The notes: a model not told the origin generated them from the letters alone. 64,000 nucleotides of DNA from Candidatus Dojkabacteria bacterium (GCA_030950485.1 JAUZRK010000015.1:2010-66009); one strand, 5' to 3'. Shown: positions 1 through 64,000, numbered from the stretch's first letter. Translations and numbers: made by a program.

Positions 1-82
1 ATAAAACAACATTTTTCAATTTTACTATCTACAAAAAAGAAACTATAATCTAACTAAGAACATTATTTTTTAAATATATAAA

Positions 83-658
83 ATGGTAATTTTAGGAGGA
101 ATTTTAGGTGTACTAGCACTAGCTATACTTTTTGTAATAGGAATTTACAATAAACTTCAACAACAAAACGTAATGGTTGACGAAGGCTGGAGTGGAATTG
201 ATGTGCAATTAAAGAAAAGATTTGACTTAATTCCAAATTTAGTAGAAACAGTAAAAGGTTATGCTAAACATGAAAGTGGAACTTTTGAAAAAGTAACACA
301 ACTTAGATCTTCAATGATGGGGACAAATGATCCTAAGGAATTAGGAGAAATGGAGGGTGAATTTAGATCTACTCTTAAATCATTATTCGCAGTAGCTGAA
401 AACTACCCTGAGTTAAAAGCAGATGAGAACTTTAGACAACTACAAGCTTCATTACAAGCTATTGAAGATGAATTAGAAGGAGCAAGAAGATATTACAATG
501 GAACAGTTAGAGATTTAAATAGAATGGTTGTTGTATTTCCAAATTCAGTGATTGCTGGAATGTTTAATATTAAAAGAAGAGAATTCTTTGAGATTACAGA
601 TGCAGTAGAAAAACAAAATGTAAAAGTTGATTTTATATCAGAGCCTAAGGCAGAGTAA
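83..658 (+). CDS. lemA: LemA family membrane protein
   Basis: The N-terminal TM helix followed by the conserved stretch NKLQQQNV..VDEGWSGIDVQLKRR.DLIPNLVETVKGYA..E..TFE.VT..R is typical of LemA. It ends with TAA. Confidence 0.7.
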   Translation: MVILGGILGVLALAILFVIGIYNKLQQQNVMVDEGWSGIDVQLKKRFDLIPNLVETVKGYAKHESGTFEKVTQLRSSMMGTNDPKELGEMEGEFRSTLKSLFAVAENYPELKADENFRQLQASLQAIEDELEGARRYYNGTVRDLNRMVVVFPNSVIAGMFNIKRREFFEITDAVEKQNVKVDFISEPKAE

Positions 659-681
659 AAATTACTAATTCTAAATATTAA

Positions 682-711
682 AGCGGTCTATAAAATGGCC
701 GCTTTTTTTTA
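682..711. terminator. Bidirectional rho-independent terminator
   Basis: A 7-bp stem AGCGGTC/GGCCGCT with an 8-nt loop is followed by T8. It sits between convergent genes. Confidence 0.7.
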
Positions 712-1233
712 TTCATCGTCATTATTAGCCCATTCAAACCAGGGATTACCTTCTTCAAATTCTTCCATATCCTCATTCTCAGCTAGTTCTTTAAATTTAG
801 TATCATCTATCTCTACACCATATTTAGTTAAGTGAGTAACGAACTCTGGATCAATGTTCTCTGAAGTGTACCATCTAGAAGCTAATGCTATGAATTCCAT
901 TTGTTTTGTTAAGTCAGCTACTTTATTGTTTTCCTTATATTTTTCTAATTCCCTGAAAGGTAGACTTAAGGAAGAAATTTCTTTAGCTATGACATCTCTT
1001 ATATCTGGAAGTTCTTTAAAGTAAAAGTCAATTTTAAACCAAATATCTGTAACTATACTCCAAGACTCTTCTAAATTATCATTGCTAAGAATACTTTCCA
1101 TAAGATCATGAACTATATCCGGCGCGTTAATAGGATTTCGTTTTAGTTCATCAAAAAGAGTTAATTCAATATCTATTCCACCGATTTCTGTTTTGAATTT
1201 TGTTACTAGCAACATAATATCTTTAATAAACAA
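709..1233 (-). CDS. Hypothetical acidic protein
   Basis: 174-aa ORF with an acidic C-terminus. No recognisable domain. Confidence 0.4.
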   Translation of the reverse strand: MFIKDIMLLVTKFKTEIGGIDIELTLFDELKRNPINAPDIVHDLMESILSNDNLEESWSIVTDIWFKIDFYFKELPDIRDVIAKEISSLSLPFRELEKYKENNKVADLTKQMEFIALASRWYTSENIDPEFVTHLTKYGVEIDDTKFKELAENEDMEEFEEGNPWFEWANNDDE

Positions 1234-1317
1234 TAAAGAGGGTGAATTCTATCACCCTCTTTAGAAATTTTTAATTTTTGTGTCTTGAGTTAAATAACCA
1301 AGACTATTACCTTGTCC

Positions 1318-2217: not shown

Positions 2218-2497
2218 ATAGTAAAGAACTTAAATTAATTTAAATATTCGTGCAAATAAATGCTAGCTTATTATCAACTAAATTTAACTCCACACTAAAT
2301 TAAATATAGATGAGTTAGCTAAGTTTCGATTTGCTGTGTGGAACAAATTTACAAACCAACTTATTATATAACTATTAACTGGTGCCTGCAAGGATTCGTG
2401 TGTTATGTATTAATAGACAATGATATTGATATGAATTTGAAATCAGAGATAAAACAAAATTATAATTTATTTTCTTCTTGATTATATTTAAATGAAG

Positions 2498-2568
2498 TTA
2501 CCGGGTAGGGATTCGAACCCCAATTGATGGTACCAAAAACCATAGTCCTACCATTAGACGACCCGGTA
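2498..2568 (-). tRNA. tRNA-Gln (anticodon TTG)
   Basis: Cloverleaf folded by hand. Acceptor TACCGGG/CCCGGTA, D-arm GTCT-AATGGTA-GGAC, anticodon stem ATGGT/ACCAT with loop TTTTGGT, T-arm TGGGG-TTCGAAT-CCCTA, discriminator A. CCA is not encoded. Confidence 0.75.
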
Positions 2569-5925: not shown

Positions 5926-5936
5926 TAAAATCATAT

Positions 5937-16471: not shown

Positions 16472-16506
16472 AAGGGTATTATATGAAGAATAGGGGAAAG
16501 TTAAAA

Positions 16507-16543: not shown

Positions 16544-16642
16544 ATTCTTACTACAAGTTACGATAAACTAAAGCATAATTACAAATTATAGAATCATTTG
16601 TGCAATCAACTATTTATTTGTAACTATGCCTGGTTTATTTTT

Positions 16643-18081: not shown

Positions 18082-18796
18082 ATGAATAAATCTCTAATAA
18101 TTAAAGAACTTAAATCATATTCAGATAAAGAATCATCAAAGACATCTGAGATTTTTTTATAAAGCATTCAAAGGCGGATACGGCGAGGGTGATAAGTTTA
18201 TAGGAGGTTTAACTGTTCCACTACAAAGAAAAATAGCGGAGAAATATTACAAAGATCTTACTTTGGAAGATATTGCTGAAATGTTAAATTCAAAATTTCA
18301 TGAAATAAGATTTACTGCGACCGAGCTACTAAAATTTAAATATAATTCTAGTAAAGAGATTACTGAAAAGGAGAAGTTAGTAAAATTTTATTTAAAGAAT
18401 TTAGATGGGATAAATAATTGGGATATAGTTGATAATTCTTGCTATAAGATTCTTGGTGATTATTTAGAAAAGAAAAATGATATAAGTATTTTATTAAAGC
18501 TTTCGGAAAGTAAGATTATGTGGGAGCAGAGGATTGCTATGGTTTCGACAATGGCGTTTATAAGAAATAACAAATTAGAGCCGACTTATCAGTTAGCTGA
18601 AATTTTAGTTAATCATAAACATGATTTAATGCATAAAGCAGTGGGATGGTTAATAAGAGAGGCTGGTAAGAGAGATATATCTAGGCTAAGAAATTTTTTA
18701 GATAAACATTATAAAACTATGCCAAGAACTGCTTTAAGATACGCGATTGAGAAGATGGGCAAAGAAGAAAGAGATAAATATCTTGGACGAAGCTAG
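18082..18796 (+). pseudogene. DNA alkylation repair enzyme (AlkD/HEAT-like repeat family) with a frameshift at a T7 run
   Basis: ATG at 18082 gives MNKSLIIKELKSYSDKESSKTSEIFL*. A shift at T7 (18152..18158) continues YKAFKGGYGEGDKFIGGLTVPLQRKIAEKYY...WLIREAGKRD, which matches the family. The ORF caller reports only 18263..18796. Confidence 0.55.
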
Positions 18797-21830: not shown

Positions 21831-24800
21831 TTACCACGTGTACCAAGATGTTCCTTCATAACTAAATACACCAGCCCAGGTTCCTCCAGGTTTTGACTTA
21901 TTAATTACACTGTCCTTATTAGCAGTTCCCATTACATAAAAGTGAACTGTTCCTCCTAACTTTTTATTTCTAAACCTATATACAGCCTCTGTTCCATTTA
22001 CACAACCATTGCTATACCTATAAGATTTCCATGCTTCACCCTCGAATGTATAAGCTCCTGCCCAATCTCCTCCTGGTGCAATTTTACTTTTAAGGTTATC
22101 TCTTTCTGTGTCTCCTAAAAGATAGAAATGTGTCCCAGGGTAATGGTTGTTCCCAAACCTATAGACACTTTCTTCTTTTATTACAATTACATTAACTCTT
22201 TCTGTAACAGTATTATTTGATGTAACTGGATCATTCTGACTTCCACTAGTCTCTGCCTTAAATGTATTATAACCAGTATTATTTAGTTTTAATACAATAT
22301 CAGCTCGAGGCTTAATACCTGGCATAATTGAACTATAATTACATATAACTATCGAACCTGAAAGACTGCAACTAGATGGTTTACTAACTAAACTATATCC
22401 GCTAGGAAGAGTTAATTTAGAAACTACTCCCGTCGCTGTAATTGTTGAACTCATATTATGAGTATTCATAGACATAGTAAACTGTTCTCCTTTACTTACA
22501 GTTGTTTTACTAGGAGTTAAATAAACTCTAAGATCTACTGAACTGCTATTTGTAGGAGGTTCAACCGGCGGAACTACTACAGATCCTTTAAACTCACTAG
22601 GATTTCCGAATGCATAATAAGCAACTCTTTCATGTCTATAATTTATACTACTAAGATCTACACTTTTACCAAGATTGTAGAAGTGTGTTTGCCTACTATT
22701 TTCAGTATTAATGTATCTTTGAACTGGTGATGATCCATTGTAATCATCTTTTAAAGTCTCATCTTTAGTTGTTATCGGCGGATAAGCATAAAAAGCTAAA
22801 GCCGGATTTAAATAGTCAGGTATTGTAATAGAATTCTCAGTTGCAACATAAAGTAACGATTGATATACGTCACTCCAATATTGATAAACAGGTACAGTTC
22901 CAGTCGCTCTATTTTTAAAAGCATAAAAGGCTGTCATATCAAATCTCCAAATTGAAATACTATACTTAACCTGAATTTTATCTTTTGCATCATTTCCAAT
23001 TACGTATAGGTGAGCTGTTTGCCCCTCTATAGGTTTGTAAAATCTGTAAACTGGAGATAATCCAGTAGCAGGATCTACTTCAGCTATTCCAGTATTAGTA
23101 TGAGCTCTACAAGTCACTGCATCATCAATATAAAATATTGGTTGCCCTCCATTCCCAAGACTCCAGCTTATAGTTGGATCATCGTCATATGAATCAGGAC
23201 TGAAATTCTTCTCAGTAGTATAGAAATTTCTAAACGGACTGCTATTCTGAGTAAAAAGGTATACCGGTTTATATAAGTTATCAGGATTAGTTTTATATGC
23301 GAAACATATATTACTTTTATCAAAGTATTCCCCCGTACCAACTAAACTACCTGCTCTTTCATAATCTGCTGTAATCTCTATAACATCTCCTTGTGGTTTA
23401 TAAAGTGTATAAACTTTAAGTGGAGAATTCACCACCTCAGCTACTTCTTTCCCACCAGTTTTATATCCTCCATTACAAATTATTCCAACAGTATCTCTGT
23501 AAACGCAGAACGTATCTCGATCATCAAAGTAAATTGTATTCATTAAAAGCGGTTGGTCTCCAGGGCTTCCAAATTGAATAAGTTCTGAAGTCGAACCGTC
23601 CTTTGCTTTTATTGAAACAGCTGTATCTGTTAGTGCAATTCCTGAGATACTGCTTGTACTTGATCTTGTACTTACGCACCTTAAAGTATCAACGCTGTAA
23701 GAACATATATCGTCAAGCCCATCACTATTAATATCACCAAGAGCTAGGTATCCAAAAGGAATATTAGTCATTGGTGAACTTACAGTTCTGCTTGTATCAA
23801 TTACTCCATTTCTATTCATTGCACATTCAACTCCAGAGGTACTGTACACACATAATTCATCATATCCATCCCCATTTAAATCTCCTATCGCCGGAATACT
23901 TCCAACTTCTCCAAATTTAATTCGAATTACTCCTGGACAAATAAGCTCCCCTTCTCTATAAACACACCTCTCAGAAATACCATCACCGTTAATGTCTCCA
24001 ACTACAGGTAAATCCTTCGGATCTCCTATTTTGTTCTGGCTTTCAAAACCTATCTTACCTGGATCAGTATCACAGTAATAGTTCACTTCTTCTTCATTGA
24101 ACTTACAAAGGTCTTCATACCCATTACCGTCAATATCTTTTTTAAATACAGTTGTATATGGTAGATAAAATTTAAGTTTAAACGGTTCAGCTTTTGCAGT
24201 TAAAGTTACTCCAGAAGAGTTAGTATACTGATACTCAACTGTCCACTCAATTTCTTTGTTTACGGGGAATTGATCAATCTCTAAGAACTGAACTTCAAGC
24301 GCTGAGTTAGCATTAAATTCTTTATCACCATATTTAATTACTGCTTTTTTAACTTCCGAGTTAGTGAATCCTTCAAAATCCCAACTGAAATTTAAAAACT
24401 TCTTTACAGTATCAATATTTACAACAGAATTATCTACAGGACTCTTCAATATTAACTCTGGCGTTATTTTAAAACTAGTCTTTGCAGGATCTGTCCAAAT
24501 ATATTCATTTGTATTCCCGTTATTATTACTATCTGCTATGTCCTTGTAATATGCTGTTATATCCCAAGTTAAGTTTTTTCCTTCAATCGATGCCAAAGTA
24601 GAATAGGGTACTGAAACTGATGTTCCACTAATTTTTCCTTGATAATAGTAAGCTCCAGAAACGCTAGTTGGCCTGTCTCCACTAGCATCATAAATCCATA
24701 ACTCATAGTATCTAGTATCATTCCCGCTGCTGTTTGAGTCAGCTAAGAATTCCTCCCATTCAAATCTAATAGAGTTTCCGTCTGGTTCAGGAGTAGCATT

Positions 24801-26789
24801 TCCTATAGGAGATATAGGTTGTATCATGTTTGGAAAGTTATCTGACTTAAAGGCAATTCCACCTAAATCTACTGATACTGGCGTTCCTTTATAAACTTCA
24901 TTACAAATTGAATCGTCAGAGAATTTCTCCGAAGGATCTATAGACTTACCATATCCAGCAGAGTCTAATGTAGCTGTATCTAAGAATGTGAAATGTAAAT
25001 GGTATCCACATGTCCAGCCAGTATATCCAACTTTACCTATAATTTCTCCCCTTTTAATCTTAGTACCAGGTACTTGTAGTCTATCTGGAATACTATTTTT
25101 CATTAGATGTAAGCATATTGAAGAGGTTTGGTCATCATATTTAATTGTAACCATGTTAACTGTACTAGCATATGAGCTTGAGCAGCCACCTTGGTTCACG
25201 AATTGTTTATATATGCCATCTTCATATTTATCTGTTGCAATGTAAATAGTACCATCGGCTACAGTTGCAATTTCTTCTCCAAAACCCATACCAAAATCCA
25301 ATGCGTACTGATTATAATATTCACCTGTAACATGACTTCCGCCGTCATTTAAAAAGTCCTGACTAACCTCATGACTGATATCCCCTGGCCAAGGCAACTT
25401 ATAAGGACTCTCCTTACACTCCAAAACCACCTCGCTCTGCCCAAATCCAAAATCCAAACTATCACTAATTCCTAAAACCGTAGGGCTACTAATATCTCCA
25501 TATTGCACTAATAACTCAGAATCTACACTATAAGAATCGGTAATATCTCCATTACTTGGAACTCTAAGAATTTCAAAATGTAAGTGACAACCTTGATCCT
25601 CAAGCGGAGCCTCGGGATTATCTCTAACGTATCCAGTATTACCAACAGTACCAATTACCTGATTAGTGAGAATCTGATCTCCAACTTCAACATAAACATC
25701 CCTAAGGTGGTAATAAACAGATATATAACGATCTCCATTACTAAAAGTATGTAATATTTTTACGTAATTTCCAGGAGTATCGCTAGCACTTTCATTTCCT
25801 AAAACAACACCCTCAGTAAAAATCTCTATTATCTCTCCACCAGCAGGAGCTAAAACTTCTGTACCGCAATACAGTCCATAGTCAGTACCATTATGCAGCG
25901 TTCCATCCCTCTCTCCAAATTCAGAAGTAATCGAAACAACATACTCCTCACCAGTCTCAGGGTTAATTTGAATTTCACTATAAGGTCTTTCAAAACTAAC
26001 ACCATCCTCAGGATTTATAACAGGAGTAGAATCAAAACCCTGACATAAAAAGTTATCCAAAGTCCAACCGACAGTACCAGTTAAAGTCATAACCTGCATC
26101 CAATTATTACCTTCAGGATCAATAAAATTATCAATAAGATAAAGCGAATCACCAAGATTTAATTTATATAAAACAATACTTGAATATCTAGGAGAATAAA
26201 ATAATTCAACGCCAGCAGTATTACAAACATGAGCCTCTGTATAAGCTATGACCTCGCTTCCAACTCTAGTTACCTCCGCTAAATTACAACTACTTAACGC
26301 ACTATCAATCTGAGTATAACCAACTCTCCCGTCACTAAGTTCAGCCCTAAACCATTTAGCTCCGTTTATATCAAAAAGATATCCAGTTATTAGAACCTCC
26401 TCAGTACTTGGTAAGATAGTGATCCAATTACTAGAACTTGAAGGTGCCTGATAAATTACTAAACCACTATTTGAATTAACTAAACACGCTACATTACTAC
26501 CAATTCCAAAGTTATCATCGCCAGTATAATCAGGCAGCTCACTATCAGGATTACTTGTAAACTCCTCACCAACTAATCTAATATCAAATCTTAAAGTATC
26601 ATTATTAGACTCTTTTCCAGTTTTATCGTAAGCATCCTTAAACCAAGTCACCCCCTCATGAATAGCATCAATCTCTAAAACATAATCACCATTTTCTTCA
26701 GGAGTTAAAACTTTCAAAGTAATGTTTTTTGTATCGTTATAACTAACTCTAGAACTTAAAATCGCTCTATTATTATCTTTTTTATACAT
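21831..26789 (-). CDS. Giant surface protein (C-terminal 1652-aa segment): SH3b-like region, two M23/LytM-like peptidase domains, FG-GAP/Ca-binding repeats, repeated YRF..HFY modules
   Basis: HNGTDYG...GCHLHFEI and ...GYHLHFTF (M23 HxxxD/HxH motifs). GDINGDGISE, GDLNGDGYDE, GDINSDGLDD repeats. No signal peptide on this segment. Confidence 0.75.
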   Translation of the reverse strand: MYKKDNNRAILSSRVSYNDTKNITLKVLTPEENGDYVLEIDAIHEGVTWFKDAYDKTGKESNNDTLRFDIRLVGEEFTSNPDSELPDYTGDDNFGIGSNVACLVNSNSGLVIYQAPSSSSNWITILPSTEEVLITGYLFDINGAKWFRAELSDGRVGYTQIDSALSSCNLAEVTRVGSEVIAYTEAHVCNTAGVELFYSPRYSSIVLYKLNLGDSLYLIDNFIDPEGNNWMQVMTLTGTVGWTLDNFLCQGFDSTPVINPEDGVSFERPYSEIQINPETGEEYVVSITSEFGERDGTLHNGTDYGLYCGTEVLAPAGGEIIEIFTEGVVLGNESASDTPGNYVKILHTFSNGDRYISVYYHLRDVYVEVGDQILTNQVIGTVGNTGYVRDNPEAPLEDQGCHLHFEILRVPSNGDITDSYSVDSELLVQYGDISSPTVLGISDSLDFGFGQSEVVLECKESPYKLPWPGDISHEVSQDFLNDGGSHVTGEYYNQYALDFGMGFGEEIATVADGTIYIATDKYEDGIYKQFVNQGGCSSSYASTVNMVTIKYDDQTSSICLHLMKNSIPDRLQVPGTKIKRGEIIGKVGYTGWTCGYHLHFTFLDTATLDSAGYGKSIDPSEKFSDDSICNEVYKGTPVSVDLGGIAFKSDNFPNMIQPISPIGNATPEPDGNSIRFEWEEFLADSNSSGNDTRYYELWIYDASGDRPTSVSGAYYYQGKISGTSVSVPYSTLASIEGKNLTWDITAYYKDIADSNNNGNTNEYIWTDPAKTSFKITPELILKSPVDNSVVNIDTVKKFLNFSWDFEGFTNSEVKKAVIKYGDKEFNANSALEVQFLEIDQFPVNKEIEWTVEYQYTNSSGVTLTAKAEPFKLKFYLPYTTVFKKDIDGNGYEDLCKFNEEEVNYYCDTDPGKIGFESQNKIGDPKDLPVVGDINGDGISERCVYREGELICPGVIRIKFGEVGSIPAIGDLNGDGYDELCVYSTSGVECAMNRNGVIDTSRTVSSPMTNIPFGYLALGDINSDGLDDICSYSVDTLRCVSTRSSTSSISGIALTDTAVSIKAKDGSTSELIQFGSPGDQPLLMNTIYFDDRDTFCVYRDTVGIICNGGYKTGGKEVAEVVNSPLKVYTLYKPQGDVIEITADYERAGSLVGTGEYFDKSNICFAYKTNPDNLYKPVYLFTQNSSPFRNFYTTEKNFSPDSYDDDPTISWSLGNGGQPIFYIDDAVTCRAHTNTGIAEVDPATGLSPVYRFYKPIEGQTAHLYVIGNDAKDKIQVKYSISIWRFDMTAFYAFKNRATGTVPVYQYWSDVYQSLLYVATENSITIPDYLNPALAFYAYPPITTKDETLKDDYNGSSPVQRYINTENSRQTHFYNLGKSVDLSSINYRHERVAYYAFGNPSEFKGSVVVPPVEPPTNSSSVDLRVYLTPSKTTVSKGEQFTMSMNTHNMSSTITATGVVSKLTLPSGYSLVSKPSSCSLSGSIVICNYSSIMPGIKPRADIVLKLNNTGYNTFKAETSGSQNDPVTSNNTVTERVNVIVIKEESVYRFGNNHYPGTHFYLLGDTERDNLKSKIAPGGDWAGAYTFEGEAWKSYRYSNGCVNGTEAVYRFRNKKLGGTVHFYVMGTANKDSVINKSKPGGTWAGVFSYEGTSWYTW

Positions 26790-26978
26790 TGTAGTAGTAC
26801 CATCACTATTTAATAAAAGCCAATGATAAGAAATACTAACTGGGTTGTTAAGTCCTTCAATAACCGGGTACCAATTTAATGATCCAGTATTTTTAATAAT
26901 GAACTCTATATTAAATTCATTTGAAGTATTAAATTCAACTGGTAGATCTATTATTCCATAGTTACCACTTTCTACTTA

Positions 26979-27899
26979 TTCATCTTCTAAATATTCAATA
27001 CTATAAATAGGTATTTCAGGCAGAGTAGGAGTATCATTATCCCCACTCCCTGATCCATCTCCTGTATTAGGATCCCCATTTTCACCATTAGTCCCATCAT
27101 CAGGATTCTCTGTACTTTCTTTAATAATGAAAATTGAATCACTATAAACTTCAGAAATATTTCCAGCAGTATCTTTATACTTTACAAAAACATCAGCACT
27201 TCCAAACTCTATAGCAAAATCAAAACTCTCAAGTATGATCGAATGATTTTCTTCACCATTATCTGGAAAATTAGCCCATTCACTCCAAGTCGAAGAATCA
27301 GTGCTTATTGAGTAAGATACTGCAGTTTGAAAAATCTTAGCTTCTACAGGAGGTACGCATTCTCCAAGATAGTCACCATGTTCAAGGTGAGAATCGAGTG
27401 CATTTTCTGAAATTGTTATCTCGTATTTATTTTCTGGATTTCCATTTGGAATATGACAAATCTCAACTTTTAGTTTTTTAGTTTCTGTATCTACCTTATC
27501 ATTCTTCTTTTCCTGTCCTAAACCTTCTTCATCTGCTGGTTCAGAGGTGTTCCCCACCTCTAAATCTTTCCCATCGTCATTATCTAGACTTTCGATTTCC
27601 CCTGCTTCGTCAGTACACAAACCTAAATAATCACCATGTTCAAGATGAGAATCTAAAGCGCTTTCAGAAACTGAAATCTCATGAGCTACTTCATTACCTA
27701 GTTCGGGTTTATGGAATATTTCAACCTTACTTCCTTCTGAATCAGTTTCTGTAGTTTCTGGTAAGATCTCTTTAATAAATGAATCGTATGAATTTAAATA
27801 TATATTTACAATGCTTGAATCTGAGATTTCATCATTGCCATCAAGTGCTTTTATGTCTATAGAACCACTTGGCTTCCCTTGATCTAAAATTATTCTATC
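26979..27899 (-). CDS. Middle segment of the same giant protein, containing two HIPNGNPENKYEIT..ALDSHLEHGDYLG repeats
   Basis: Same frame as 21831..26789, separated only by a TAA at 26976..26978. A 93-codon open stretch upstream of its TTG lacks any start codon and runs back to the TGA at 27900..27902. Confidence 0.55.
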
Positions 27900-28298
27900 T
27901 CAAGATGAAACTGAGCTAATCTCGTCAACCTTAACCTCTATACAAATCTCATGTTCATCCTCGACTGTAGGAATATATCCAATTCGAGATAAATAACTTC
28001 CGCCTTCGTCTTCAAATATCTCTACCTCTTCAAATTCGCTCCATCCAGAATTATCTGAAAATTTATACTTTGCAAAACTAGGTGTAAAACCTTCGCTTAA
28101 ATAAGTTTTTGTATTTACTAAAACCTTATTTGTGAACTTATTATCTAAATAAGTATCTGAACTTGGATTTACAACTAATGAAACGGAATTAGCTGCTGGA
28201 TCAATTACTTCTTGTGCTTTTACTGCAGGTATTAAGCCAACTAATGGCGAAAGTAAAATCTGCAATAATAATATTAATGTTAATAATTTATTTTTCAT
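27900..28298 (-). CDS. N-terminal signal-peptide segment of the same giant protein (ends at an in-frame TGA)
   Basis: Signal peptide MKNKLLTLILLLQILLSPLVGLIPAVKAQE. The TGA at 27900..27902 is in frame with the downstream segments. Confidence 0.55.
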   Translation of the reverse strand: MKNKLLTLILLLQILLSPLVGLIPAVKAQEVIDPAANSVSLVVNPSSDTYLDNKFTNKVLVNTKTYLSEGFTPSFAKYKFSDNSGWSEFEEVEIFEDEGGSYLSRIGYIPTVEDEHEICIEVKVDEISSVSS

Positions 28299-31562: not shown

Positions 31563-32786
31563 CTAAGCAGCCTGTACTATAGGTTTACCTTTACTGTTAG
31601 TATCAGATCTCTTCATAAAATCGGCTCTGTCAGATTTCTCAAAATCTCCTACTGGGCTAATATTTAATTGAGTATTGTAACTTGTAGGTAGACCTTGGGG
31701 ATCTGAAATTGTGAATACAATATTTGGTATTTGACCAGAATAATTTAAATCAGTAGGTGTAAAGGTTACATCTCCTGTTCTATTATTCACTGTGAATGTC
31801 CCGATACTATCTTCATTACCTACTTCTACAGGTGAAAAATCCTCATCTAACCCCACAGTAGTTATACCTCCAGTAAATGGAATTATATTTCCATCAATTG
31901 TAATGTTTGATAGTCTCAATTCGTTTAAATTATTGTCAACATCTTCAATTATTTCTATATTATCTTGGTCAGTGAAGGCATTAAATCTAGCTTCCTCTGT
32001 TTGATCAAAATTTAGAACCCTTCCGTTTGTTCCAAAATCTCTAATCACTTCAGGTTCATCATTAACTGAGCCAACAAAGACTCCATTAACAGCTACTGTA
32101 GTAGTTCCTCCACCAGAATCACTTACTCCAAAAACAAATCTTGGAACTTCACCATGAAAATTTAACTCAGGTGTGAAGTTTACGATACCAGTTTCTGGAT
32201 CTACCTCAATATGACCGACTATATTATTACCATCTGCGTCGTAGATTGCTACAGGTTCTTTAAAATCACTTGAAATATGAATTGTATCTTCTCCTGTGAT
32301 AACTCTAACGTCTGTGATTCTTGGGACATCTCCTTCATCAATATTTTCAACATAATCAAAGACACTTATTATAGAAGTAGTATCTTCTTCAATTTTTATC
32401 GTAGGTACGTTTTTTATTGTTGTAGGTGCGTCATTAACAGGATCTACTATTATATCTAATCTTTGAGATGCTGTTGAAATTCCGTCACTAACATTTACTT
32501 CAACATAAGGAACTGCTCCATTAAAGTTTTCAGTTGATCTAAAGAAAATATTTTCAGTTCCATTATTAACACTCAGTGTCCCAATAATTTCCCCTTTTGC
32601 ATTTAGTACCTCAATATTATTGGCACCCCCAGTTACTCCTATTGTCTCTCCATTAATTACTACATCAGTTATATTAAGAGCATCTCCACCAACATCAGTT
32701 ACATTATCAAATACATTATTTACAAAGATGTTTGTATCTTCGTTACCGGTTACCTCAATCGTGCTTATTGCTACTACGGGGCATCA
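31563..32786 (-). CDS. C-terminal segment of the VNDAP-repeat adhesin (frameshifted continuation of 32774..35578)
   Basis: The frame is open from 32783 to 31563 with no start codon. It reads ..VVAISTIEVTGNEDTNIFVNNVFDN.. directly after the ...PVNDAP* end of the upstream ORF. The GTG reported as a start is internal. Confidence 0.55.
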
Positions 32787-40961: not shown

Positions 40962-41873
40962 ATGGCAATAAACACTAAGGCAATCAAAACAAGGATTCAA
41001 TCAGTAGAGAACACGAAGAAGATAACTCGTGCAATGCAGATGATTGCTGCGGTAAAAATGAAGAAGGCTGTTAATGCAGCTATTAGAACAAGAGAATATA
41101 GTGAACTTTCTTACGATCTTATGAGAAATCTAGCAGGCACTGAGCTCAATCATCCCTTAGCAAAAATACGTAAGGCAAAGAACTGTCTTCTTATAGTTCA
41201 TACTTCAAATAGAGGCCTTTGCGGTAGTTACAATGCTAATATAATTAGATCAGTAAGTGAATATATTGATAATAACTCTGATGTTAATTTTTCAATGATT
41301 GCTTTAGGTAATAAAGCAGCAAGGGTAGCTAAAAATTATAATCTGGAATTAGTTGGATTATATGAAAAGTTAAATGAGAACCCTAAATATGAAGATATAA
41401 TTCCTCTTGCTAAGGAAATGACTGATAAATTTATTGATAACGATATAGATCAAGTCATTGTAGCTTATACAAATTATATTTCAGGACTAAATCAACAAGT
41501 AGAATTACGTGAGATCTTACCTTTCAAGAAAAAATCTATAGAAGATTTTTATAAGAATGCAGGATCAAGAAATGAAAGTGAAGAAATTGGTGAAAAAGGA
41601 ATTGATTCAAAAGATGAATATGAATTTGAACCAAAAAAATCAGAGGTTCTAAAATATATAATTCCGATACTTGTAGAAATACAACTTTATCAAGCATTAT
41701 TAGAATCAACTGCAAGTGAGCATAGTAGTAGGATGATTGCTATGAAAAATGCAAGCGATGCTGCAGGAGATATGATTGATGACTTAACTTTACAATTTAA
41801 TAAAGGTAGACAGGCTGCTATTACACAAGAAATTAGTGAAATAGTTGCAGGAGCATCTGCTTTAGATAACTAA
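40962..41873 (+). CDS. atpG: F0F1 ATP synthase subunit gamma
   Basis: N-terminal IKTRIQSVENTKKITRAMQMIAAVKMKKA and C-terminal ..ITQEISEIVAGASAL helices. Length is as expected. Confidence 0.85.
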   Translation: MAINTKAIKTRIQSVENTKKITRAMQMIAAVKMKKAVNAAIRTREYSELSYDLMRNLAGTELNHPLAKIRKAKNCLLIVHTSNRGLCGSYNANIIRSVSEYIDNNSDVNFSMIALGNKAARVAKNYNLELVGLYEKLNENPKYEDIIPLAKEMTDKFIDNDIDQVIVAYTNYISGLNQQVELREILPFKKKSIEDFYKNAGSRNESEEIGEKGIDSKDEYEFEPKKSEVLKYIIPILVEIQLYQALLESTASEHSSRMIAMKNASDAAGDMIDDLTLQFNKGRQAAITQEISEIVAGASALDN

Positions 41874-42405
41874 TGAGAGAAATAGAACTTAAATATAAGA
41901 TAAATGATAACCAAGATATAATTGGAATTCTTAATTCGTTAGGTTGTGATTTATCTGGTGAGATAGTTCAGAAGGATAAGGTTTACTCTAGAAAAATTGA
42001 TAATAAACATAGTGTTTTTAGAATAAGAACTCAAGAATATAGAGGAATTGAAAAGACTCTGTTGACATTAAAGCAAGATATTACTAGCGAGTTAGATTGT
42101 CTTGAAAGTGAAATTGAAGTTGACGATGCGGATAAGACTGAAGAAATGTTGGAATATTGGGATTTAAATTTGGAGTTGAGGTAAGTAAGAAGAGAAGAAA
42201 GGGGAATTGGAGAGGTGTTACTGTTTGTTTTGATACAGTAGAAGGACTGGGAGATTTCATAGAGCTAGAATATCTTACTGACGCAGAAGACGTAGACGCT
42301 GAACTTGAGATTAAAAAATTAGAAGGAAGAATGAGCGAAACTGGCATTGAAGGTTACGAAAGAGTATTTAAAGGATACGATAGCTTATTGCTAGAAAAAA
42401 AATAA
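41873..42405 (+). pseudogene. CYTH-domain protein (CyaB/thiamine-triphosphatase-like) inserted in the atp operon, frameshifted
   Basis: EIELKYKI...FRIRT...LTLKQ then, after a -1 shift near 42155..42160, GFKFGVEVSKKRRKGNWRGVTVCFDTVEGLGDFIELE. These are CYTH motifs. The two ORFs are in different frames and overlap by 28 nt. Confidence 0.55.
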
Positions 42406-50218: not shown

Positions 50219-50712
50219 CTATAACTCCTTGGATTTTCTTTTAAAGTGTCCGAAGTCAGTTATAGTAAATACACCAACATGTCTTTGGGAGAAAGATAAT
50301 CCGAGTATATTTGAATCATCATCTATAATAAGTTCTGTTGTATCACAGTGCAATAACTGTATTGCTTTATCAGAATTTTTGTAAAGAGAAAATACAATTC
50401 TTCCAAATTCTTCTACTCCTGTTACTATTTGACCTAGCATCTCTAGACTTCCAGGCTTGCCATATGATCTCCTATTAGAAATAGCCTTTTTGTCATCTCC
50501 TCTTTCCTTTATAAAGTTTATCTGGGTTCGCTGTATATCGACATCTTGGGGCAATATGTGTACTCTAACTATGAAATCTGTAGATTTAATAGCATCTAAT
50601 AGAGTAATATCATCGTATTCTTCACCTAAATTAGTTTTACTAAAGAATTCATTTATATAAATACTTATACTTTCACTTCCAAGATTAGTACCATCTTCTA
50701 TTACAAGAGATT
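50219..50712 (-). CDS. Hypothetical protein with an uncertain start
   Basis: The reported ORF starts at TTG (50552). The frame is open 53 more codons upstream to 50712 without ATG/GTG/TTG. Confidence 0.3.
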
Positions 50713-50790
50713 TCTAAATAGAAGGAGAGTCATTGTCAGTTTTTCTTTCTAATTGGTAATCATTAAATGGCATTATTACCTATTAATAAA

Positions 50791-52496
50791 TCAATTTTGT
50801 TTAGTTCTTTTTGTAAAGTTAGCAATTAAGAAAAATAGATTTAATACACCTATTCTTCCAAATAGCATTAAGGTTATCATTACCCATTTAGATCCAATAC
50901 TGAAAGCTGCATAGCCTCCGGCTGGACCCTCATTTATAGCTCCAAAGAAGTCTGTTGGTCCAATATTTCCAAGATTTGCAATTGAAGCATTAAAGGCTGT
51001 AGCGAAGTCTATGAATTTTGAATCAAAGATTAAAATTAATATACCTCCTGCTATAAACAATATAAAGTAAAAAGCTATGTTTACAGTGATTAAAGACATA
51101 TCTCGTCTATTAAATTTACTCTCATCAATTTTTATATCTTGAAACTCATGCTTTCCTGATATAAAGTTACTAACTTCATTTTAATGTTGATAAAAAAAGC
51201 AATAAACCTTTTTACTTTAAGCCCTCCTCCAGTAGATCCAACTGTTCCACCTACAAAATAAACTATGAAAAGAATAGTTACAGCAATTATTGGCCACCCT
51301 GTAAAATCCCAATTTTCTAGTCCTGTAGTAGAAATTACAGTACCAACAGCAAAGAACGAGTATCTTAAAGTTTCTTCAATATTTGAATAATAATTATAGT
51401 GCCACAGGGTTAATGCTATTAGGCCGGATATTAAAAAGCTTAAAGCTATATATACTTTCATTTCTGTATTTTTCCAAAATGCTTTTTTATCTTTCTTGTA
51501 AAAGAATATATACCAAACTCCAGAATTTGCACCACTAGCAAACATAAAGAAAGTAATTATCCATTCCGAGACTGGGTTCTGAAGTCCCCCCATTATAAAA
51601 TGACCACTTTCATCAAGAATAAGTTCCCCATTCTCAGACACCTCAGGTAGACCTGCGATGTTTCCGTAGTGACTAAATCCTCCAGTACCTAATGTTGAAA
51701 ATGAATGTGTAATAGAATCATAAGCATTATCATACCAATGTTCGTAAGGCTGTTGTCTAAAGAATTGTCCCGAGATTAACATTAGAACAATCATTATAAG
51801 TGTTAATAGGCCGTAAGTTTTTATAAAGTCAAATCCTGAGTTTCTTGCTTCATGTTCATCTTTAAATTCTGTAGCTTCAGGTGATTCAACTTCTGCATTT
51901 ATTAGATTAAATCTACTATATTTAAAATTATTTAATAGCGTTATGGTCATATATACAAGTCCCATTCCTCCAATCCAGTGAGAGACTGTTCTCCACATTA
52001 GTACACTTCTTGGTAATGATTCAATATCTAACAAAATAGTTGACCCTGTTGTAGTTAATCCAGACATTGATTCAAAGAACCCATCAGTAAAGACTCTCAT
52101 CGCACTAAAGGTCTATCCAGTAGGAGAGTTTGGATATCCAGCTAAAATAAATACTATTGCAGAAATTAAACTAGCTATTATCCAAGCATTAACAACTATT
52201 AAGACTGATAACTTAAAATCTATTTTTCTTTCGAAAATATGGTGCCCGTGTAAGTAGTGTCCAATACCAAATAAAATAGCAGCTATACCCGAACCTATAA
52301 ATGTCGGCAGCAGATTCTCGTCTTCAAATCTATTATCATTTATAACTAAATAGAAAAAGCCTATCCCTGCACTGAAAAGTAATCCAAGGAATATACTTAA
52401 TTGAAAGTGCAGTGCTACTATTATCGAATAAAATATGTTTTCATTATATGGTAACTTTTTATCAGTAATAATAACCTTACTTATTAAATAAATCAA
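50791..52496 (-). pseudogene. trkH: TrkH/KtrB-family K+ uptake permease split into three ORFs
   Basis: The family signature runs across 52496..52113, 52100..51132 and 51099..50791, including GLTTTGST, GGLKVKRF..., and SIANLGNIGPT...KWVMITLMLFGRIGVL. A TAG at 52113..52115 is in frame between fragments 1 and 2. Fragments 2 and 3 are joined by a 1-nt frameshift near 51130..51136. Confidence 0.75.
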
Positions 52497-52620: not shown

Positions 52621-52695
52621 GGCCCTATCGTTTAACGGTTAGGACACTAGATTCTCAATCTAGCAATCCGGGTTCGATTCCCGGTGGGGTCACCA
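52621..52695 (+). tRNA. tRNA-Glu (anticodon CTC), CCA encoded
   Basis: Cloverleaf: acceptor GGCCCTA/TGGGGTC (two G-U pairs), anticodon stem CTAGA/TCTAG with loop TTCTCAA, T-arm CCGGG-TTCGATT-CCCGG, 3' ACCA. Confidence 0.8.
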
Positions 52696-53187: not shown

Positions 53188-53872
53188 ATGAATACTAGTT
53201 CAAAAAGTGCTCTGATTTTTGGAATACCCTTATTAATTATATTCGTATTCTATATTTTTTCTGGTAGTGATAGCGATGATAATTTAGAAGATACTATAAG
53301 TAATGATGTAGATAATTTTATTGAACACGAAACTCCAGAGCCTGAATACGTTGTTAATAAAAATGATCTTGTTAACCATAGTGAAGTTTTAGATATAGAT
53401 AAGACTCTGAATTAAGTGAAGAGGAGATCTCAGATCTTATATATATGAGGGAGGAAGAAAAACTAGCACATGACGTATATGTAACTTTATATGAGCAATG
53501 GAAAAAAACGTTTTTAATAATATTTCAAAAAGTGAAATAACTCATACAGAGTCAATTAAAACTTTGTTAGATGCATATGAGATAAATGATCCATTTATAG
53601 AAGGAGTAGGTGAATTTACAAACAAAGATCTGTCAGCACTTTATGATCAACTAACAGTATATGAAAATCTACAAAGAGGTTCGCGAAATCATTTAAGAGC
53701 TTTTGTTAAAAATCTGAATAATTATGGAGAAGATTATTCCCCAAGTTATATTTCTAAAGAAGAATTTAATCTAATTATTTCTGGGGAAAATGAAATAGGC
53801 CAGGGATCATCAGGCAATCAAGATGATGGATCTGGACTAAGTAGAGGAAGCGGGTATAAAAATATTAGGTAA
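53188..53872 (+). pseudogene. DUF2202-like (ferritin/rubrerythrin-like) secreted protein carrying two frameshifts
   Basis: A signal-peptide ORF runs 53188..53415. It is followed, in other frames, by LSEEEISDLIYMREEEKLAHDVYVTLYEQW and then NVFNNISKSEITHTESIKTLLDAYEINDP. The shifts sit at 53410..53415 and at the A7 run 53502..53508. Confidence 0.45.
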
Positions 53873-54248: not shown

Positions 54249-54260
54249 TAAATAATAAGT

Positions 54261-54578
54261 ATGGATACTATTAGCGTAAAAGAATTAAAAGAAAAATTGA
54301 AGAATATGTCTGAAGATGAAATTGTAGTTGATGTACGAACTCAGGCTGAGTTTTCAGAAGTAAGAATAGATGATCCAAAGGTTATAAATATAGAGCTGAG
54401 TACAGTTATTCATAATGCTGAAGCTTTAGAAGGCAAGAAAGCATACTTAATCTGTAATAGTTGAAGTCGTAGTTATATGGCGCAACTTTTACTTGCAAAT
54501 AAGGGAATTCAAGCTGTAAATATTGACGGTGGAATGGTTTTATGGATAGAGCCTAAATATCCAGTAATAAAAGATTAA
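54261..54578 (+). pseudogene. Single-domain rhodanese with an in-frame TGA at the active-site Gly position (CNS[TGA]SRS)
   Basis: ...KKAYLICNS then TGA (54462..54464), then SRSYMAQLLLANKGIQAVNIDGGMVLWIEP in the same frame. The rhodanese loop consensus is C-x-x-G-x-R-(S/T). Confidence 0.6.
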
Positions 54579-54599
54579 TTTAGATTTTTAAAGTAAATT

Positions 54600-56303: not shown

Positions 56304-56320
56304 ATTAAAAAATTTAAAAA

Positions 56321-56785: not shown

Positions 56786-56832
56786 GAATGAAATAAGTTA
56801 AGAAGGGAACTCTATTAGCTCCCTTCTTATTT

Positions 56833-60749: not shown

Positions 60750-60916
60750 ATATAAAAGCTTATTAGAATTTTAATTTTTTTACAACATATTTGTTTTTAA
60801 ATTCTAATTGATATTAAGTATTGCCTTAGAATTTATTGTTGGACTTCACAGATTAGGTTTATTGAATAAAGCAATAATTGATGCTTTAATGATTTATATA
60901 TGATCATTTAATACAA

Positions 60917-61639
60917 ATGGACTTAACTGCGATTATTACGACAATTAGACACGGTGAAAAAGATGATTCTGGATCTTTAACTGATGATGGAGCAAATCAA
61001 TAAAGATTAAGAGCGTTAGAAGTTGACCACCTTAAGGGAGATCTTATCTTATTTCATAGTGGAGTAAATCGAGTAGAAGACACTATAAAGCACTTAGCTT
61101 CAAATATTCATGCAATTGAAGTCTCACAGTTTGATATTAAACTCCAAAATGAACTTCATATGCAAGATTATATAGTACCTAATCTTCATTATTTATATGA
61201 CCCTAGTATAAAGGGTAGGTATTTTGGAGAATGGGATAATATTGAAATGACTGAAAAAAGTATTCTGGATAGAATAGATGGATTCTTAAATTTTAAAGAT
61301 AAAAGTCTAGAACCGAATATTTTTCCTTCACCTCTTGAAATGTTTAAGAGGATCTCAAGTGTTATTAGGTCTCAGATTAATTTCGCAACAATTACTGATA
61401 GCACCCATAGAACTAATTTTATAAATGGAACACATGAACCAGTAATATCTGCATTTATATTCTTTCTACTAAAAAAGATGAGTGACAAGAGTATCACTAA
61501 AATAGATGACATAGGAGGCCCTATTGGTTTTGCTGAAGGGTTAGATATACTAGTATTTCAAGATAAAAATCAGGAGATTAAATTAGAACTCAATTTTAGA
61601 GGGAAGAATTATCCATTTGAATTATCTGATTTAGGATAA
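60917..61639 (+). pseudogene. Histidine phosphatase superfamily (phosphoglycerate-mutase-like) protein with an in-frame TAA
   Basis: MDLTAIITTIRHGEKDDSGSLTDDGANQ, then TAA (61001..61003), then RLRALEV... in frame through the ORF reported at 61160..61639. RHGE is the family catalytic motif. Confidence 0.5.
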
Positions 61640-62060
61640 AAGATCTTTCTAAACTTATAACATAACAGTTATCTCTACCTGAACTAAATCACCAACCTTT
61701 ATTCTCTCACTATCTCTAACAGATTTCTTAATAGGGAGTATAAAACTATTCGATTTTTTATCTGTAAAAATCGAGGTTTTGAAGTTAGAATTACTAATAG
61801 TTACATTTACGGGAAGTGAACCCCAGCCTCACTTCTGATCAGCATATCTAAAGTCTATAAGCTCTTTTATATCTTTTGGTAACGTTATAAAGTGCCAAGC
61901 TGCTTTTTCGCTAGAGTGGATCCATAATACTGCTTTGAATTTTAATTTATCCATTTAGTATATATTTAAACATATTTATTTTACTTTAATAGAAAACTTA
62001 ACACTATATTCATATTAAATTCACTACTTCGAAATATAATATGGTTAATTAAATTAAAAC

Positions 62061-62294
62061 ATGAAAAATGAAAATGTAAAATTATCTTTTCCCTTATTAT
62101 TAGGAGTATTTATTCTAGTAATTGGAATAGGTATCTCTTTAGTATTTATATCCTACGCTTCAAATAGTGGAAATGTTGAAGCAACAGTTGATGGAAGTAA
62201 TAATAACAATACAGCACAGCAGGATATTAGAAAAACTATTAGTACTAAGAGTAGTAATAATAAGGGTAATTCTAGAAGAAATGACGCTTCATAA
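62061..62294 (+). CDS. Small membrane-anchored protein
   Basis: 77 aa. TM helix followed by a polar N/S/K-rich tail. Ends ATGA-overlapped with apbE. Confidence 0.3.
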   Translation: MKNENVKLSFPLLLGVFILVIGIGISLVFISYASNSGNVEATVDGSNNNNTAQQDIRKTISTKSSNNKGNSRRNDAS

Positions 62295-63191
62295 ATGAAA
62301 AACGATCCTAATCTAATAAGAAAAATAAAATTTAGAGCAATTGGTACTAATTGGTACTTTGAATTTTTTGAAGATGTGCAAATAGATTTAGTTTCAAGGG
62401 CAAAAGATATAATTGAAGAATTTGAAAAGAAATTTTCTAGGTTTATAGATACAAGTTTTGTCTCGCAGCTAAATTCGGATAAATACTTCAATAATCCAGA
62501 TGATGAGTTCTTTGAATTAATAAAGATTGGAAAAGATGCTAATAAAGTTACAAATGGATCTTTTGATATAAGTATAGGAGGAATACTAGAAGATAGAGGT
62601 TATGATTCGAACTATTCTTATATTCCTAAAGACAATAGGAATCAAGTAGGGAATGTCAGTGTTACAAAGGGTGAAATTAGAATAAGCCCAAATTCAAGAA
62701 TTGATCTTGGGGGTCTTGGAAAAGGTTATTTAGTTGATAAAGTAAAAAACTTTTTTTTAAAGAATAATATTAAGTATTTTTTAATCAATGCGGGAGGCGA
62801 TATTTATGCTACGAGCGATAATAAAGAAAAAATAAGGTTTGAACTTGAAAGCCCATTTGAAACTTCTGAGACGATAGGGGAGCTTTTAATAAGTAACTCA
62901 GCAATAGCAGCCTCATCAAATTCTAAAAGAAATTGGAGCTATGGAGGAACGGAGTATGGACATTTAGTACAAACCAATAAACTAATTAGAAATAAAATTA
63001 TCAAATCAGTTTATACTTTTGGAAATAAGTGCCTAGACGTAGACATTGCGGCAACTTGTATTTTTCTATCTGAAGTAGGTTTATATAAAAAAATAAGCAG
63101 TTACTATAATGTGCAATATCTAATTTTATTCGAGGATGGTACTTTTACTAAGAGCGAAGGATATCCTGCTGAGTTATATTTAAACAAATGA
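62295..63191 (+). CDS. apbE: FAD:protein FMN transferase (ApbE family)
   Basis: ApbE motifs DISIGGILEDRGYDS, IDLGGLGKGYLVDKV, INAGGDIYATSD, DIAATCIFL. Confidence 0.75.
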   Translation: MKNDPNLIRKIKFRAIGTNWYFEFFEDVQIDLVSRAKDIIEEFEKKFSRFIDTSFVSQLNSDKYFNNPDDEFFELIKIGKDANKVTNGSFDISIGGILEDRGYDSNYSYIPKDNRNQVGNVSVTKGEIRISPNSRIDLGGLGKGYLVDKVKNFFLKNNIKYFLINAGGDIYATSDNKEKIRFELESPFETSETIGELLISNSAIAASSNSKRNWSYGGTEYGHLVQTNKLIRNKIIKSVYTFGNKCLDVDIAATCIFLSEVGLYKKISSYYNVQYLILFEDGTFTKSEGYPAELYLNK

Positions 63192-64000
63192 AAATTAACA
63201 AACTAACATTATTATATAGTACGATTGTTCTTTCTTACCTATACTAATACCAGCTCTTTACTTTACTAAAAGTTATGGGTTTGCTTTAAATGAGTCATTT
63301 TGGGTAATAGGCTCAATTACAGGCTTACTAGCATTTATACTTTTTTTCTGGGAATATTTATTAACTGTAAAGCCCTTAGTAAGGTTATATACTAAAGATG
63401 TAATTTCACTAATAAACTTACACAGATGGATAGGTATAAACATGCTTGTTCTTCTTTTACTCCATCCAATAGCTTTGATTTTAGAATCATTAATTAATAG
63501 AAGTGAATTACTAATAACAATAATTCCAAGTAATTCTTATAATCTATATTTAATGCTTGGAGAACTATCGTTCATTTTGTTATATCCATTTGGATAACAA
63601 GTTATTTGGCTAGAAAGAAAATGTCATATAGGATTTGGCGAATATCTCACCTTTTAACTTACTTAGTATTTCCAATCACCTTGATTCATACGATTAAGAT
63701 AGGAACATATTTTAGTAGTATTTTTATAAGTACATACATATATGTCATCTTTTCGTTATTCATACTTATAGTTTTATATAAATTTCTACACTTTGCATCA
63801 ATATTAGGGAATAGATATGTTATTACGAAGATTGAAGACATTAATTCAGAGATATATTTAGTTCATTTAAAACCTACAATAAAAAAAATTAAAATAAAGG
63901 GTGGTCAATTTATTCAGCTTAGGTTAAATCCATTTGGTGAAAGTCATCCATTTAGTGTATTAGACTTTGATGAAACTACTGGAGAGATTGCTTTAGGTAT
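63188..64000 (+). pseudogene. Ferric-reductase-like transmembrane domain plus FNR-like FAD-binding domain protein, disrupted and running off the window end
   Basis: MKINKLTLLYSTIVLSYLY, then TAA (63245..63247), then an in-frame YPALYF...LHRWIG...HP... ferric-reductase TM region. A +1 frameshift at the TTT run 63588..63590 continues WITSYLARKKMSYRIW...H... and then RYVITKIEDI...GQFIQLRL...HPFS (FAD-binding RxYS-type motif). Confidence 0.5.

Follow-up and report, generated by a model that had tools for sequence, protein, structure and literature searches.

Interrupted genes in a Candidatus Dojkabacteria contig

The window (the whole stretch of DNA analysed here, 64,000 nucleotides) is a contig of a MAG from an uncultured clone of Candidatus Dojkabacteria (CPR), with a GC content of ~31%. 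Inside genes that otherwise represent full-length members of their families, we confirmed eight one-base frameshifts and six in-frame stop codons (TAA, TAG and TGA all occur), plus one 39-codon in-frame deletion in a DUF2202 gene. The first-pass annotation had counted at least seven homopolymer frameshifts and at least six in-frame stops. Its overall tally stands, and the codons and homopolymers it cited are all present where it placed them, but several of the sites are not lesions as described, and both the DUF2202 deletion and a TGA in a DUF1905 gene had been missed. The lesion-bearing genes number ~11 of 60 in the 64 kb (~18%, about one in six) and make up 17.4 of the 57.8 kb of coding DNA. 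As had been proposed, the housekeeping genes are intact: ATP synthase, gpmI, eno, gatA and zwf-gnd give full-length Pfam matches. A sister MAG, GCA_030949735.1, spans 52,971 bp of the window (~53 kb) and represents the same clone; no SNPs between the two assemblies are convincing.

Lesion-spanning Pfam domains or full-length homologues were found for TrkH, Rhodanese, CYTH, DNA_alkylation, DUF2202, Ferric_reduct, DUF1905 and the histidine-phosphatase-like gene; for the two giant surface proteins, a peptidase and an adhesin, the evidence is confined to frame continuity and repeats. In the potassium uptake gene trkH (50791..52496, minus strand), a single Pfam TrkH domain runs across an in-frame TAG (52113-52115) and a frameshift, and the read-through product, aligned across 96% of its length, shows 69% identity to intact orthologues of 540-554 aa, in which the TAG position is a conserved Glu. 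The frameshift had been placed around 51133; we confirmed it, but located it to the T4 run 51179-51182, where the coding strand has gone from A5 to A4. This gene deviates at 1 of 94 otherwise invariant columns, no more than its intact homologues do. In the AlkD-like DNA-alkylation repair gene (18082..18796, plus strand), the full Pfam DNA_alkylation profile (positions 1-213 of 213) is matched only when two frames are joined at the T7 run 18152-18158, most simply by assuming a change from T6 to T7. A gene for alkylation repair is itself among those bearing lesions. The sister MAG carries both trkH lesions and an identical T7 site.

Three smaller genes contain one stop each, all of them also present in the sister MAG. 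In a single-domain rhodanese (54261..54578, plus strand), the Pfam Rhodanese domain extends over a TGA (54462-54464) that takes the place of a Gly in the active-site loop (CNS*SRS, compared with CNSGNRS in the intact paralogue at 56321-56785); intact rhodanese paralogues adjoin the broken gene. A histidine-phosphatase-like gene with an RHG motif (60917..61639, plus strand) is interrupted by a TAA (61001-61003), which aligns to Ala or Ser in its homologues. Pfam returned no match for the read-through product, and 50 homologues of ~245 aa, some of them annotated as histidine phosphatase, cover 94-100% of it; it deviates at 1 of 43 otherwise invariant columns, again no more than intact homologues do. 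In the DUF1905 gene (61655..61954, minus strand), the whole Pfam profile (positions 1-81 of 81) extends across the TGA at 61829-61831.

The DUF2202 (ferritin-like) gene (53188..53872, plus strand) combines two frameshifts, one within 53403-53415 and one in the A7 run 53502-53508, where A8 is needed to keep the frame, with the in-frame deletion, whose junction lies near 53650. Pfam DUF2202 profile positions 79-116 are missing from the gene, all 150 of the 150 best homologues match its product in two stretches ~35 aa apart, and alignment shows that the 117 nt deleted encoded nine otherwise invariant residues. These lesions, too, are common to both MAGs, and a deletion of this size is beyond what base-calling produces. 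The ferric-reductase-like flavoprotein gene (63188..64000, plus strand) runs off the end of the window and has frameshifts within 63220-63247 and 63543-63597, both also found in the sister MAG; the second lies within the Pfam Ferric_reduct match (positions 1-120 of 121). The TAA at 63245, previously read as a stop in the same frame, is actually the end of the frameshifted N-terminus.

The remaining disrupted genes on the minus strand are very long. The giant secreted M23 peptidase (21831..28298, ~2155 codons) forms one continuous frame in which a TGA (27900-27902) and a TAA (26976-26978) sever the signal peptide and 500 N-terminal residues from the rest. We found no homologue spanning either stop. 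After the stops at 26976 and 27900, 93 and 62 codons, respectively, remain open without a start, and we accept both stops as lesions because such stretches exceed the expectation for a random frame, which in this genome meets a stop about every 13 codons. Gene calling in the sister MAG yields the same two fragments, of 132 aa and 214 aa. The cadherin-like repeat adhesin (31563..35578, ~1338 codons) has a frameshift, also in the sister MAG, at the run 32778-32781, which is C4 on the coding strand and would be restored to frame by C5; the shift is confined to an interval of just 10 nt (TGCCCCGTAG), beyond which 404 open codons continue with the same cadherin-like PVNDAP repeat. A TAA at 35597, upstream of the adhesin, had been listed as a weaker lesion and proved to be the normal end of a gene; an ATG follows six codons further on.

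Thus the in-frame stops called earlier in trkH (TAG 52113), the rhodanese (TGA 54462), the histidine phosphatase (TAA 61001) and the peptidase (TAA 26976 and TGA 27900) are borne out by domains, homologues or open frames, and the frameshifts called in the alkD-like, adhesin, CYTH and DUF2202 (two) genes and at the second ferric-reductase site by profiles or frame continuity. Seven of the eight frameshifts are simplest as one-base deletions. Four lie inside runs of 4-8 identical bases, and in several of the intervals the longest run is no more than 2-4 bases. Inspection by eye revealed no common sequence motif around the stops, and the eight frameshift sites have no slippery motif in common.

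Further candidates are less clear. In the ApbE flavin-transferase gene (62061..63191, plus strand), a TAA at 62292-62294 parts a membrane anchor from the ApbE domain, which begins at an ATG just after the stop; judged from the sequence, this is a possible lesion, but could equally be two genes sharing a frame by chance. A hypothetical gene without a family match (50219..50773, minus strand) has a possible in-frame stop lesion, a TAG at 50714-50716, where 53 open codons lacking a start come after a 19-codon piece that begins with ATG. A frameshift near 44690 is also possible.

Comparison of the two assemblies

Fourteen of the 15 lesions covered by the sister MAG are identical there, all six stops included, although the two MAGs were submitted in one batch (their locus-tag prefixes, Q9M76 and Q9M91, are adjacent) and presumably have platform and pipeline, possibly even reads, in common. 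The fifteenth, and the only lesion private to the window's assembly, is the frameshift in the CYTH gene between atpG and atpD (41873..42405, plus strand). Pfam CYTH matches across the joined frames, and the shift reflects a one-base deletion at 42153 (GGAAT versus GGAAAT); in the sister MAG the extra A is present and the gene encodes an intact 183-aa CYTH protein.

The sister MAG itself has 53 private differences, with indels outnumbering substitutions by ~4:1, most of them G/C insertions and length changes in A/T runs. That these are consensus errors is evident from their targets: they disrupt atpB, atpE, gpmI, eno, zwf-gnd and ApbE, genes that the window has intact, and include false stops in the essential genes eno (47284) and gpmI (45904). 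One 5.6-kb contig contains 12 one-base indels and zero mismatches, and elsewhere there are garbled patches and clusters of errors at contig ends. An assembly so full of one-base indels implies that the underlying data are error-prone long reads.

The lesions found in both assemblies are distributed otherwise: none of the 14 falls in a housekeeping gene, compared with 21 of the 53 sister-private errors (Fisher one-sided p=0.0025), and under a uniform model, with 13.7 kb of housekeeping genes, zero such hits has p=0.023. The shared set comprises 7-8 deletions or run-length changes and six nonsense substitutions. With 5.3% of random substitutions creating a stop, six nonsense errors would imply more than 100 substitution errors per 64 kb, a load incompatible with the 12 isolated mismatches seen when one assembly is compared with the other. 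Homopolymers in the window are mostly resolved correctly; A/T runs that stand in frame inside intact ORFs include 94 of at least 6 bases and 17 of at least 7.

Genuine pseudogenes or consensus errors

We think that most of the lesions are probably genuine mutations that inactivated genes and became fixed recently in a clonal population of this member of the CPR/Patescibacteria; we favour this reading because of the mutational spectrum, the sparing of essential genes and the DUF2202 deletion. The lesions would then reside in the DNA and not just in the consensus. They take the form of nonsense substitutions, one-base slippage at short runs and the single 117-nt deletion, and their targets are dispensable or redundant (trkH, AlkD, a spare rhodanese, DUF2202, DUF1905, the histidine phosphatase, the ApbE/ferric-reductase pair and the two giant surface proteins), leaving the core energy and carbon genes untouched. 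These genes would have died recently, since, lesions aside, their conservation equals that of intact homologues, and the mutational input would be biased towards G:C-to-T:A changes (GAG to TAG, GGA to TGA) and contraction of runs. The first-pass annotation had left the choice between decay and consensus error open; the evidence leans towards real lesions, but the CYTH frameshift, and possibly one or two sites in long A/T runs, may still belong to a minority of residual consensus errors.

Several observations count against genuine pseudogenes. Identical lesions are also compatible with a platform-systematic error, both MAGs being one batch, and one-base deletions associated with runs are the classic type of long-read error. 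The trkH and histidine-phosphatase genes have no excess of changes at invariant positions, as would be seen in functional genes carrying errors, and the eno and gpmI stops show that false stops in essential genes do arise in this type of data. The CYTH frameshift is missing from the sister MAG, and lesions are not significantly clustered within genes (P=0.31 and 0.05). Pseudogenes are also generally reported to be scarce in CPR genomes (PMC9166423).

The main alternative is that the genes are intact in the organism and that we are looking at residual consensus errors in long-read metagenomes, which recur through a common platform, pipeline or set of reads. We regard this as unlikely, though it deserves serious weight: the lesions resemble the broken ORFs that Nanopore or PacBio consensus errors leave in MAGs, in that they include one-base indels, several of them at homopolymers, of the kind in which the sister MAG abounds along with its garbled patches and contig-end clusters. 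Several A/T runs of at least 7 bases differ between the two MAGs (17653, 39456, 42395 and 51192), the window has its own private error candidate in the CYTH gene, the broken genes are perfectly conserved apart from their lesions, and a search of public collections found no contig of this organism assembled from Illumina data. Such errors should, however, fall irrespective of gene function, whereas the shared lesions avoid housekeeping genes; six shared nonsense substitutions lacking a motif are not a known systematic error of long reads, and the substitution load that they would imply is ruled out by the near-identity of the assemblies. Nor is the 117-nt deletion a product of base-calling. One-base homopolymer indels do not predominate, with six stops against eight frameshifts; several of the frameshift intervals contain no long run, while most long homopolymers are in frame. 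Finally, the lesions are reproducible in two assemblies, just the CYTH frameshift failing to recur, with the caveat that systematic errors would recur too.

A mixture, in which the stops and the deletion are real and most of the homopolymer frameshifts (T7, A7, C4, T4) are systematic errors in dead or dispensable genes, seems to us quite improbable. Disagreement in run length between the MAGs is indeed common, and two of the frameshifts lie in A/T runs of 7, but the errors would have to coincide with the already broken trkH and DUF2202 genes or with dispensable genes and yet spare the 17 long runs in intact ORFs; by our own Poisson estimate, the chance that at least two of ~16 random lesions would fall in the 0.7-kb gene bearing the deletion is ~0.015. 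Recoding, whether by an altered code, stop read-through or programmed frameshifting that keeps the genes functional, is effectively refuted: this is a CPR organism with one in-frame TGA exactly at a conserved Gly, that of the rhodanese, as in code 25 (TGA = Gly) of its CPR relatives Gracilibacteria and SR1/Absconditabacteria, but TAA and TAG are also in frame, the other conserved ORFs all lack TGA, intact ORFs run to 1652 codons with none of the three stops, the frameshifts do not have a slippery motif in common and no suppressor tRNA was found within the window. We likewise rejected codes 25 and 4 as alternatives, with three stops involved, a single TGA at a Gly position and long table-11 ORFs uninterrupted, in agreement with the earlier exclusion of a genetic-code change.

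Relation to pseudogene-rich genomes

Sodalis glossinidius, Mycobacterium leprae, Shigella and Salmonella Typhi have pseudogene-rich genomes and are recently bottlenecked or host-restricted. The window resembles them in that many genes have between one and three nonsense or frameshift lesions but good conservation elsewhere, in that the genes hit have accessory, transport, surface and repair roles and core metabolism is spared, and in that the population is clonal. It differs from them in lineage, belonging to the CPR, whose genomes are generally reported to be compact and poor in pseudogenes (PMC9166423). Within the 64-kb window we also saw no expansion of IS elements, and the lesions are known from assemblies.

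These observations reflect either a quality issue or ordinary pseudogenisation. If the lesions are real, as we favour, the lineage is unusual but the kind of feature is ordinary. We also put forward, as a tentative possibility that goes further than the pseudogene reading itself, that this may be a CPR lineage caught in the course of genome reduction: at least 15 inactivating lesions would have been fixed per 64 kb, affecting ~18% of the genes, too fast for missense decay to follow, from a mutational input of G:C-to-T:A nonsense changes and homopolymer slippage that looks repair-deficient, with the alkylation-repair gene itself among the losses. If true, this would provide a rare snapshot of how the minimal gene sets of the CPR arise.

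Disrupted genes and intact neighbours

The window (GC ~31%) holds about 60 genes, and in ~11 of these we count eight frameshifts, six solid in-frame stops and one deletion; the lesion-bearing genes account for 17.4 of the 57.8 kb of coding DNA. After the fragments were joined and the conceptual products scanned against Pfam, a single domain ran across the lesion or lesions for TrkH, Rhodanese, CYTH, DNA_alkylation (profile positions 1-213 of 213, across the T7 run at 18152-18158), DUF2202 and Ferric_reduct, and all of the ATP-synthase genes, gpmI, eno, gatA and zwf-gnd gave full-length matches. The first-pass annotation's observation of many disrupted genes is confirmed and extended, and every codon and homopolymer that it cited lies where it was placed. 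It was right that trkH carries a frameshift, but this falls in a T4 run at 51179-51182 rather than around 51133. We dropped two of its stops: TAA 35597 is the normal end of a gene, and TAA 63245 is where a frameshifted N-terminus ends, and was reclassified as a frameshift. The frameshift that it suggested around 44690 is at most a candidate. Overlooked in that annotation were a TGA at 61829-61831 (-) in a DUF1905 gene, where profile positions 1-81 of 81 span the stop, a 39-codon (117-nt) in-frame deletion in the DUF2202 gene that removes nine otherwise invariant residues, and possible extra stops at 50714 and 62292. The 0.7-kb DUF2202 gene also holds two of the frameshifts (53403-53415 and 53502-53508).

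For several genes, homologues show what the lesion replaced. The TrkH read-through product is 69% identical over 96% of its length to intact orthologues of 540-554 aa, and its TAG (52113) aligns with their conserved Glu. In the broken rhodanese, which is flanked by intact paralogues, the TGA at 54462 takes the place of the catalytic-loop Gly (CNS*SRS versus CNSGNRS in the intact paralogue 2 kb downstream). The histidine-phosphatase-like gene has no Pfam match, and Pfam and PDB searches gave nothing or weak hints; a large protein search returned 50 full-length homologues of ~245 aa, in which its TAA (61001) aligns to an Ala/Ser column. The adhesin frameshift (32778-32781) is pinned to a 10-nt window, TGCCCCGTAG, beyond which 404 open codons continue the same PVNDAP repeat. 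The probable ferric-reductase partner of ApbE is hit (frameshifts at 63220-63247 and 63543-63597), and so may be ApbE itself, through the possible stop at 62292.

For the two stops in the giant M23 peptidase (TAA 26976 and TGA 27900), no spanning homologue was found, and only a ~45-aa internal repeat module has relatives. The gene nonetheless keeps to one frame throughout, and the stops are followed by 93 and 62 open codons that lack a start, in a genome where a random frame meets a stop about every 13 codons. The module (…ICHIPNGNPENKYEITISENALDSHLEHGDYLGEC…), which has no Pfam match, occurs twice at residues ~175-350 (27000-27700, -), and many unrelated secreted proteins from metagenomes contain it at 56-66% identity.

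The ORF-free, GC-richer stretch at 16471-17374 is explained by a class A bacterial RNase P RNA (16639-17020, -; 133.5 bits, full-length model match), and tRNA-Gln(TTG) and tRNA-Glu(CTC) lie at 2497-2568 (-) and 52621-52695 (+). A sulfur/redox cluster at 54000-57804 comprises a CsoR-like metal-sensitive repressor, the broken rhodanese, a secreted rhodanese, a zinc-type alcohol dehydrogenase and a 567-aa thioredoxin/MBL-fold/double-rhodanese fusion. The zwf-gnd gene (29157-31460, -) encodes one 767-aa fusion of glucose-6-phosphate dehydrogenase and short-form 6-phosphogluconate dehydrogenase. Within the F-type ATP-synthase operon, a CYTH gene (class IV adenylate cyclase/triphosphatase-like; 41873-42405, +) sits between atpG and atpD, and the delta (OSCP) gene (39153-39392, +) has 79 codons matching only profile positions 111-172 of 172. 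Its N-terminal two-thirds are missing, with no space between atpF and atpA, in both of the assemblies compared below; the short form could be a lineage trait or a further deletion.

Comparison with a second assembly

By exact sequence the window falls on a 67,784-bp contig of a MAG (Candidatus Dojkabacteria bacterium; locus tag Q9M76, proteins MDQ6985xxx) that has a single close relative in the genome and metagenome collections searched. Exact-protein look-ups for several window proteins found only one other genome, GCA_030949735.1 (Q9M91, MDQ702xxxx), a MAG from the same submission batch that encodes the same proteins. TrkH and histidine-phosphatase homologues likewise indicate Dojkabacteria/WS6. 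The nearest species, GCA_964635995.1, has a TrkH 69% identical and no synteny to the window; a scan of a genome-contig collection for close relatives gave only an alphaproteobacterial TrkH (30% identical), the best relatives in a metagenome-contig collection reached only 33-43% identity, and a literature search on the assembly accession found nothing.

Together, four contigs of this sister MAG (7, 15, 33 and 9) span 52,971 bp of the window, and neighbours overlap by 0.4-1.1 kb when placed on its coordinates. The two are the same clone, and their 53 difference events are of the noisy-consensus type: ~4:1 indels to substitutions, with many G/C insertions, A/T-run length changes and two garbled patches, and only ~12 isolated mismatches in 53 kb. 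The events cluster at the sister's contig ends, and its isolated mismatches and insertions are skewed to G/C despite the 31% GC genome; it looks like a low-coverage long-read consensus. Where differences fall within recognisable genes (atpB, atpE, atpA, gpmI, eno, zwf-gnd, ApbE and others), the intact copy is the window's. CYTH is the sole exception: its frameshift at 42153 is private to the window, and the sister's CYTH is intact at 183 aa (a 2-nt A-run difference also separates the two at the 3′ end, 42395). The first-pass annotation had proposed comparison with an independent assembly; the sister carries the 14 other covered lesions in identical form, all of the stops and the DUF2202 deletion among them, although the shared submission batch may limit its independence. 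Next to the RNase P gene lies a tandem repeat of 7 nt (AAAACTC, ~6 copies, 16497-16543) that has two more units (14 nt) in the sister; of the length differences between the assemblies, this one alone resembles a VNTR and not an error.

Real lesions or consensus errors

Of the two alternatives raised in the first-pass annotation, genomic decay and consensus error, the evidence favors decay, and we consider real, recent pseudogenisation the probable explanation. Systematic error common to both MAGs is a less likely account, although it has points in its favor: platform-systematic errors would recur in MAGs from one batch, most frameshifts are deletions of a single base and four lie in homopolymers of 4-8 nt, and the sister demonstrably has false stops in the essential genes eno and gpmI. 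Furthermore, in trkH and the phosphatase, a relaxed-constraint test at invariant columns found no extra changes, and clustering of lesions within genes, a potential sign of decay, fell short of significance, whether judged by distinct genes hit (P=0.31) or by small genes with two hits (P=0.05).

Four lines of evidence speak for real lesions, beginning with the spectrum. The errors that can be demonstrated are rich in insertions and poor in substitutions, whereas the shared lesions are deletions and nonsense changes. A random substitution in these ORFs yields a stop in just 5.3% of cases; for six nonsense "errors", the 64 kb would need to contain more than 100 substitution errors, far above the isolated mismatches seen. 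No common sequence or methylation motif was seen around the stops. The housekeeping genes (13.7 kb) contain 0/14 shared lesions versus 21/53 sister-private errors (Fisher p=0.0025; p=0.023 for no hit under a uniform model), as expected for a footprint of selection. Base-calling cannot produce the 117-nt deletion, and most long homopolymers stay in frame: intact window ORFs contain 94 in-frame A/T runs of 6 or more, 17 of them of 7 or more.

The little probability left by these two readings goes to a mixture, or to recoding; the window has no suppressor tRNA. A genetic-code change is excluded, as the first-pass annotation had held, since the in-frame stops comprise TAA, TAG and TGA alike and ORFs as long as 1652 codons are free of them.

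If pseudogenisation is real, inactivating mutations would have become fixed in dispensable or redundant genes of a clonal population, the two MAGs showing no credible SNPs. Those nonsense changes whose ancestral codon can be reconstructed would be G-to-T (GAG to TAG, GGA to TGA), and the frameshifts mostly one-base run contractions, a pattern that oxidative damage together with slippage would leave where repair is weak. The near absence of missense decay suggests that the events were recent.

Possible bearing on genome reduction

The feature is not of a new kind: recently bottlenecked or host-restricted bacteria undergo pseudogene waves that resemble it. It would be unusual in CPR, a group with genomes reported as compact and poor in pseudogenes (PMC9166423). 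On either reading, the deposited annotation, in which gene fragments are entered as separate proteins, needs correction before metabolic inference; if the lesions are errors, a public MAG has ~30% of its coding DNA in this region wrongly annotated as fragments. If they are real, pseudogenes are unusually numerous in this MAG for a CPR genome, and it provides a dated snapshot of functions that this Dojkabacteria lineage is now discarding, namely K+ uptake, alkylation repair, a flavin-based ferric-reductase module, and surface peptidase and adhesin genes, and would thus bear on the route by which CPR genomes shrank.
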